Part shown: in pieces, positions 60,185-61,171 of the stretch
How the letters are laid out: every line of letters starts with the position of its first letter
Numbering within the stretch: position 1 is the first letter of the stretch
From: Escherichia coli
GTDB taxonomy: Bacteria > Pseudomonadota > Gammaproteobacteria > Enterobacterales > Enterobacteriaceae
NCBI RefSeq assembly: GCF_003334405.1
Contig: NZ_QOWM01000001.1
Strand: one strand, 5' to 3'
Length of the DNA: 64,000 bases
The notes under the pieces: generated by a model
Database searches by the model: none
Seen by the model: only the letters and a program-made list of their open reading frames with translations
What the model was told of the DNA's origin: nothing
Made by a program: the position numbers and the translations under genes

Positions 60185-61171
60185 ATGATGCAGGATTTGC
60201 GTCTGATATTAATCATTGTTGGCGCGATCGCCATAATCGCTTTACTGGTACATGGTTTCTGGACCAGCCGTAAAGAACGATCTTCTATGTTCCGCGATCG
60301 GCCATTAAAACGAATGAAGTCAAAACGTGACGACGATTCTTATGACGAGGATGTCGAAGATGATGAGGGCGTTGGTGAGGTTCGTGTTCACCGCGTGAAT
60401 CATGCCCCGGCTAACGCTCAGGAGCATGAGGCTGCTCGTCCGTCGCCGCAACACCAGTACCAACCGCCTTATGCGTCTGCGCAGCCGCGTCAACCGGTCC
60501 AGCAGCCGCCTGAAGCGCAGGTACCGCCGCAACATGCTCCGCATCCAGCGCAGCCGGTGCAGCAGCCTGCCTATCAGCCGCAGCCTGAACAGCCGTTGCA
60601 GCAGCCAGTTTCGCCACAGGTCGCGCCAGCGCCGCAGCCTGTGCATTCAGCACCGCAACCGGCACAACAGGCTTTCCAGCCTGCAGAACCCGTAGCGGCA
60701 CCACAGCCTGAGCCTGTAGCGGAACCTGCTCCAGTTATGGATAAACCGAAGCGCAAAGAAGCGGTGATTATCATGAACGTCGCGGCGCATCACGGTAGCG
60801 AGCTAAACGGTGAACTGCTTCTTAACAGCATTCAACAAGCGGGCTTCATTTTTGGCGATATGAATATTTACCATCGTCATCTTAGCCCGGATGGCAGCGG
60901 CCCGGCGTTATTCAGCCTGGCGAATATGGTGAAACCGGGAACCTTTGATCCTGAAATGAAGGATTTCACTACTCCGGGTGTCACTATCTTTATGCAGGTA
61001 CCGTCTTACGGTGACGAGCTGCAGAACTTCAAGCTGATGCTGCAATCTGCGCAGCATATTGCCGATGAAGTGGGCGGTGTCGTGCTTGACGATCAGCGCC
61101 GTATGATGACTCCGCAGAAATTGCGCGAGTACCAGGACATCATCCGCGAAGTCAAAGACGCCAACGCCTGA
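60185..61171 (+). CDS. zipA: Cell division protein ZipA
   Basis: 328-aa product [26 protein letters not shown]... with an N-terminal TM anchor, charged region, P/Q-rich linker and C-terminal FtsZ-binding domain. Confidence 0.9.

Follow-up and report, generated by a model that had tools for sequence, protein, structure and literature searches.

In-frame length variation of the Pro/Gln-rich ZipA linker among Escherichia coli strains, probably by slippage between short direct repeats

The 64,000-nucleotide stretch of Escherichia coli DNA analysed here (the window) carries on its plus strand an open reading frame, 60185-61171, that is ZipA, a cell-division protein. The gene name had been proposed from the letters alone, and it is borne out by comparison: the reading frame scores 419.1 bits with the NCBIfam equivalog TIGR02205 (septum_zipA, cut-off 119.65), its residues 4-320 aligning with profile positions 1-284, and Pfam PF04354 (ZipA_C) falls on its residues 194-317 with E = 4.5e-46. 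The same interval matches the zipA annotated in K-12 and many other strains at 100% identity, and zipA is annotated in 5,426 of 5,426 complete E. coli genomes. Binding of the FtsZ C-terminal peptide and a requirement in division are known for the identical K-12 protein (PMC8669495, PMC6904479). The gene lies between cysZ and ligA, and RefSeq annotation of other E. coli genomes places it between the same two neighbors. Its true start is the ATG ATG at 60185; 118 of 120 public ZipA proteins begin MMQDLRLIL. The GTG start that the ORF finder chose at 60134, which would add 17 codons (60134-60184), is an artefact, as the public ZipA proteins examined start with MMQDL. A consensus scan found no promoter upstream of zipA. 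In the gap between zipA and ligA, at 61200-61224, a G+C-rich hairpin followed by five T's (core CCCCCG-CUUGU-CGGGGG) folds at -15.5 kcal/mol (z = -3.4) and looks like an intrinsic terminator, and it is absent from the list of the consensus scan. Among the complete genomes, zipA matches also occur on two plasmid-labelled records, and in at least one genome zipA is found at two places, which may reflect a duplication or replicons that were mislabelled.

The published map of ZipA consists of a transmembrane helix (residues 7-28), a charged domain (29-85), the PQ domain (86-185) and a globular domain (186-328), and is attributed to Ohashi et al. 2002 in PMC6904479. The zipA of the window is identical to that of K-12 and follows the same domain order, with no difference in the P/Q domain at 86-185; Table 1 lists the domains by position. 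Read from the sequence, the hydrophobic run covers residues 5-26. The charged domain keeps a fixed length across strains, bar one 1-residue insertion in a single protein (P0010). The globular domain is well covered by experimental structures, with PDB chains 1F46, 1F47, 1F7W, 1Y2F and 1Y2G spanning residues 185, 189 or 190 to 328. For the P/Q linker no solved structure of an isolated fragment was found, the crystal and NMR entries beginning at residue 185 or later. PDB entry 9iue, unlike the older entries of the C-terminal domain, lists a full-length 328-aa ZipA chain (18 chains). An AF2 model built on a shallow alignment of 18 sequences has a mean pLDDT of 46.6 and is low in the globular domain too, which makes it too weak to speak for disorder; at this low confidence it gives a helix at residues 2-29 and no secondary structure for residues 30-192. 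Ohashi et al. 2002, as relayed in PMC6904479, described the K-12 P/Q domain as an unstructured flexible tether, and one structural study argues for something more compact than a free tether (PMC6904479).

Table 1. Coordinates of zipA, its domains, its neighbors and the repeat copies discussed in the text
Feature	Position	Strand	Basis or remark
cysZ	59194-59955	-	upstream neighbor of zipA
zipA coding sequence	60185-61171	+	328 codons and stop, 987 nt
N-terminal membrane anchor, residues 1-28	60185-60268	+	hydrophobic run; PMC6904479 map
Charged domain, residues 29-85	60269-60439	+	K/R-rich, then D/E-rich; PMC6904479 map
P/Q domain, low-complexity flexible linker, residues 86-185	60440-60739	+	composition; PMC6904479 map
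GCGCAGCCG, left copy of 9-nt direct repeat	60479-60487	+	69 nt from right copy
CAACCGGTCCAGCAGCCGC (QPVQQP), first copy of 19-nt imperfect family	60491-60509	+	contains CAGCAGCC at 60500-60507
GCGCAGCCG, right copy of 9-nt direct repeat	60548-60556	+	
39-nt segment beginning with second QPVQQP copy (CAGCCGGTGCAGCAGCC...)	60551-60589	+	
GTGCAGCAGCCT (VQQP) unit, single in the window	60557-60568	+	CFT073 and O157:H7 alignments
CAGCCGTTGCAGCAGCCAG, fourth copy of 19-nt family	60590-60608	+	CAGCAGCC at 60599-60606
C-terminal globular FtsZ-binding domain, residues 186-328	60740-61168	+	Pfam ZipA_C; PDB chains
ligA	61242-63257		downstream neighbor of zipA

The tract that drew attention to this gene, 60430-60745, lies inside the reading frame on the plus strand as codons 82-187, and its original placement in the Pro/Gln linker was nearly exact, given the published limits of the PQ domain. 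Residues 83-187 consist of 29.5% Pro, 22.9% Gln and 17.1% Ala, compared with 4.5%, 4.9% and 7.2% in the rest of ZipA, and the amino-acid entropy is 2.89 bits there versus 4.11 elsewhere in the protein. At the DNA level the tract has a GC content of 0.65-0.67 and, in 316 nt, contains CAGCCG five times, CAGCCT five times and CAGCAGCC three times. This amounts to 15.8 copies of CAGCCG per kb versus 0.46 per kb per strand in the window, an enrichment of ~34-fold, and to 9.5 copies of CAGCAGCC per kb versus 0.07 across the window. Repeated 8-mer pairs number 19 in the tract, a value that none of 2000 base shuffles attains (1.6 +/- 1.8), which puts it in the top ~1% of 315-nt segments of the 64 kb for 8-mer repetition, behind REP arrays.

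How much of this repetition is a property of the DNA itself is answered by shuffles that keep both the amino-acid and the codon composition: they give 12.1 +/- 5.8 repeated 8-mer pairs (p = 0.12), and since they reproduce most of the repetitiveness, the repetition of the DNA mostly follows from the P/Q/A-rich composition. The 6-mer count alone exceeds these codon shuffles (p = 0.008). Peptide repeats in the tract are no more frequent than after shuffling of the residues (p = 0.14-0.21). Even at score 30, Tandem Repeats Finder reports no tandem array in zipA; a repeat search returns imperfect families, one of 29 nt with five copies at 66-83% identity and one of 19 nt with four copies at 74-79%, and every spacing within these families is a multiple of 3. 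The tract is thus a low-complexity region of scattered short direct repeats and not a tandem repeat. The original description of the DNA as visibly repetitive is right in that the units are present and exceed base shuffles, but they form no tandem array and are mostly compositional.

The prediction that the length of this linker varies in frame between strains was checked on 5,426 complete E. coli genomes, using junction probes built so that the opposite allele gives no 28-nt seed. The one-copy junction, which is that of the window (987 nt, 328 aa), is present in 3,036 of the 5,426 genomes (56.0%), and the two-copy junction, with an extra 12-nt VQQP unit (999 nt, 332 aa), in 2,289 (42.2%); neither probe matched in 101. 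In the long allele a second copy, GTGCAGCAACC(C/T), is inserted after 60556 and before the GTGCAGCAGCCT unit, changing QPVQQP into QPVQQPVQQP, so that the common indel can be written as one versus two copies of GTGCAGCA(G/A)CCN. The 987-nt gene is found in K-12, BL21, O26, O103:H2 and O111:H8 strains, and the 999-nt gene in CFT073, UM146, Nissle 1917, ST131, O157:H7 and O55:H7; strain A25 carries the one-copy form on a CFT073-like haplotype. Because E. albertii and E. marmotae both carry two PVQQ-like units at the position of the 12-nt indel, comparison of the sequences suggests an ancestral long form, from which the K-12 form would derive by deletion.

Beyond these two alleles, a composite probe for four deletion junctions, run on the complete genomes, detected larger in-frame deletions (309, 308, 305 or 295 aa) in at least 28 of them. 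The 309-aa form, with a 69-nt deletion, occurs in 22, including an O25:H4 strain (CU568-3); the 308-aa form (60- or 72-nt deletion) in 3; the 305-aa form (69- or 81-nt deletion) in 2; and the 295-aa form, a 111-nt deletion from a 332-type parent, in 1 (EM10-18-28). The rare genes measure 930, 927, 918 and 888 nt. Three further matches of the deletion probe were false positives, being full-length zipA genes with a synonymous CCG>CCA change. Coverage of the linker query falls below 80% in 31 genomes, and 2 records match at 80-90% identity; the share of rare alleles among the complete genomes is bounded at 0.5-2.3%, which is a bracket rather than a measured frequency. Both deletion proteins are common in the wider collection, with 1,861 blocks for the 309-aa form and 478 for the 308-aa form. 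Since the two 309-aa genes that were fetched (L005, L013) are identical, it is likely that the allele stands for a single sub-lineage that has been widely sampled. As a separate observation, a record named 'O25b:H4-ST131' has the full-length two-copy form, while O25:H4 CU568-3 has the 309-aa allele.

The wider protein sample locates the variation within ZipA. Public Escherichia ZipA proteins, most of them from E. coli and some from E. albertii and E. marmotae, are between 300 and 375 aa long and contain 105 distinct linker sequences. The distance from VHRVNHAP at residue 68 to KPKRKEAV at residue 187 varies between 91 and 166 aa, and in every anchored variant the part from residue 187 to the C terminus has a length of 142 aa. 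The N-terminal start is constant as well, and extra residues upstream of the linker anchor occur in only 2 of 120 proteins (P0012, 335 aa; P0013, 348 aa). Essentially all of the difference in ZipA length between strains therefore maps to the linker, and far from being invariant, as would have told against the original prediction, the linker falls into the 328/332-aa split plus a series of rarer alleles. From the presence of these variants in sequenced genomes we infer that the linker tolerates changes in length.

The end points of the variants point to how they may have arisen, and exact-repeat homology was assessed for those alleles whose DNA had been fetched. The two GCGCAGCCG copies (at 60479 and 60548) are the ends of the 69-nt deletion in the 309-aa and 305-aa alleles (L005, L013, L012); CAGCAGCC at 60500, 60560 and 60599 supplies the ends of the 60-, 72- and 111-nt deletions; and CCGGT at 60494 and 60554 the ends of a second 60-nt event. 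Seen by segment, the 60/72-nt (308 aa) and 99/111-nt (295 aa) deletions have their left end in the first copy of the 19-nt family (L003, L006-L008), the 39-nt segment is the right end point of the 60-nt deletion, and the EM10-18-28 deletion has its right end in the fourth copy of the 19-nt family. In the fetched DNA, five independent deletions carry exactly matching stretches of 5-9 nt at their two ends, whereas random deletions of the same size within the tract have a mean of 1.6-1.8 nt; the four cases with 8-9 nt reach p ~0.04 each, and the five events combine to p = 9e-4 (Fisher). The 305-aa allele (L012) has 9 nt of homology if its parent was of the 328 type and 0 nt if it was of the 332 type. 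At least three distinct DNA events, each on another background (L006, L007, L008), have led to the same 308-aa protein.

Longer alleles fit the same layout. The 349-aa allele (L014/L015) is a perfect 51-nt tandem duplication bounded by CAGCCG that includes the 39-nt segment, and the 354-aa allele (L016) carries three perfect copies of that 39-nt unit, again bounded by CAGCCG, and apart from the two extra copies is identical to the K-12-type sequence. Breakpoints deduced from proteins alone had given 0-3 nt of homology for many events and a combined p of only 0.006, and are imprecise; this approach was dropped, as it assigned 0 nt to the 308-aa allele against 8 and 5 nt on the real DNA.

We consider it very probable that the tract is the disordered P/Q linker of ZipA, with a length that varies by slippage between short repeats. 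The linker connects the membrane anchor at the N terminus with the domain at the C terminus that holds the FtsZ tail. A peptide so rich in Pro, Gln and Ala draws on few codons (CAG, CCG, CCT, GCG), and short in-frame direct repeats such as CAGCCG, GCGCAGCCG and CAGCAGCC are therefore scattered through the DNA. If such repeats mispaired, by replication slippage or short-homology recombination, the DNA between them would be deleted or tandemly duplicated. Because zipA is essential, in-frame products alone would survive, and as a disordered tether presumably needs no exact length, they would be tolerated and some would become fixed in lineages. The outcome would be the 328/332-aa dimorphism across E. 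coli and the many rare shorter and longer alleles. We infer both the slippage mechanism and the functional neutrality of the alleles from the sequences compared. Large deletions in the ZipA linker are reported to be tolerated in the laboratory, which would fit the natural allele series.

Several features of this picture have counterparts in known systems. The linker of FtsZ varies in length and sequence between species. The FtsZ C-terminal linker is a low-complexity, intrinsically disordered spacer of the divisome, as the ZipA tract probably is, and it is reported to be essential, with sequence features that matter for function (PMC9586301); it differs in belonging to another protein, the binding partner of ZipA, and in its composition. 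With slipped-strand indels at short repeats, the zipA indels share their in-frame nature, their direct-repeat ends of 5-9 nt and their perfect tandem duplications. In contrast to contingency loci, the zipA tract is neither a homopolymer nor an array of short units, it shows no on/off switching, since a frameshift could not be maintained in an essential gene, and its variation is slow enough to mark deep lineages.

The linker is also where point differences accumulate. SNPs are 2-5 times as dense in it as in the remainder of the gene (2.85 vs 0.60%, 0.95 vs 0.45%, 2.53 vs 0.89%), and all amino-acid differences among five aligned alleles fall at residues 83-148; both observations fit relaxed constraint. 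One of the polymorphic positions is codon 120 (60542-60544), which is His (CAT) in the window and K-12 and Arg (CGT) in CFT073, O157:H7 and A25; residues 83, 122, 139 and 148, in or at the edge of the linker, are polymorphic in the five alleles as well. The elevated non-synonymous change could instead be taken as a sign of selection, with linker length under lineage-specific selection and the alleles adaptive rather than neutral products of slippage; what is tuned could be the distance between Z-ring and membrane, or the way in which cells respond to ZipA-dependent factors of phage or host origin. Each of the two major alleles is fixed across large lineages, the 308-aa product arose at least three times, and the phage lambda peptide Kil is known to act through ZipA (PMC3961180). 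However, recurrence is expected from the repeat layout alone, since the same pairs of repeats are reused, and lengths from 295 to 375 aa are all found in nature. We therefore regard adaptive linker lengths as unlikely. A more specific proposal is that selection, on how far the membrane-to-Z-ring tether extends or on sensitivity to factors acting through ZipA, explains both the 328/332-aa split and the repeated ~308/309-aa deletions; this we regard as very unlikely.

Slippage at scattered repeats has also to be set apart from a true tandem-repeat locus, of the VNTR or contingency type, in which fast copy-number change would resolve individual strains. The 12-nt unit present once or twice, the 39-nt unit once or three times and the 51-nt unit once or twice have the look of such a locus, as does the number of distinct rare alleles. 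Yet Tandem Repeats Finder detects no array at score >=30 and the repeats are imperfect and scattered; ~98% of the 5,426 genomes belong to two alleles that follow deep lineages, and the identity of both fetched 309-aa loci in zipA is consistent with clonal inheritance and not with rapid switching. A locus of this kind is, in our judgment, highly improbable here.

It is still harder to credit that the length differences are sequencing or assembly artefacts of a GC-rich, low-complexity region. Assemblers can indeed collapse or expand such regions, and several of the rare alleles are known from a single contig, but the variants are present in complete genomes and always in frame, the repeats are far shorter than sequencing reads, and the alleles recur in very many independent assemblies (1,861 and 478 blocks for the 309-aa and 308-aa proteins and 2,289 genomes with the two-copy form). 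The chance that the repetitiveness serves a function of the nucleic acid or of an overlapping gene is negligible: ORFs of 108, 97, 97 and 66 aa do cross the tract in other frames, antisense or alternative, but CAG/CCG/GCG-rich DNA lacks stops in several frames by composition alone, the alternative frames translate into low-complexity strings rich in R/L or in A, natural deletions of 60-111 nt take out large parts of these ORFs, and of the 9 SNPs that separate the linkers of the window and CFT073 only 3 change the ZipA protein, which argues that the zipA frame is the constrained one.

What remains most probable is slippage in a linker whose nature is already textbook knowledge: the tract is the known, probably disordered linker of ZipA, and its length variation is real but ordinary. 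The polymorphism is evident from existing annotations and is of the kind expected for a disordered linker. In the literature searched we found no description of natural indel or length polymorphism in zipA, and what is new here is the population picture, with a 328/332-aa dimorphism and rare alleles of 295-375 aa bounded by short repeats. The suggestion that the tract could serve as a strain marker holds in part. Lineages can be separated by it, but the separation is coarse, because two major alleles account for ~98% of genomes, identical events recur, and the short form of A25 sits on a CFT073-like haplotype; the tract is a coarse lineage marker of limited value. Within that limit the 12-nt indel offers a cheap PCR-size marker that distinguishes the K-12, BL21, O26, O103 and O111 types from the CFT073, Nissle, ST131, O157 and O55 types. 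Annotation and typing schemes should expect E. coli zipA genes of ~888-1,128 nt (the upper figure being deduced from the 375-aa protein) and should not flag them as errors. The natural series of alleles from 295 to 375 aa is, in addition, a ready set for testing tether length against Z-ring function.

The most repetitive stretches of the 64 kb lie outside zipA, at 29886-30070 and 16491-16575. They consist of one 100-nt unit in 1.9 copies at 97% identity and of 19-nt and 14-nt tandem units, all containing palindromes of the GCCGGATG...CATCCGGC type, and they look like REP/BIME elements. A further tandem repeat, with a 24-nt period and ~2 copies at 77-80% identity, is found at 7891-7951.
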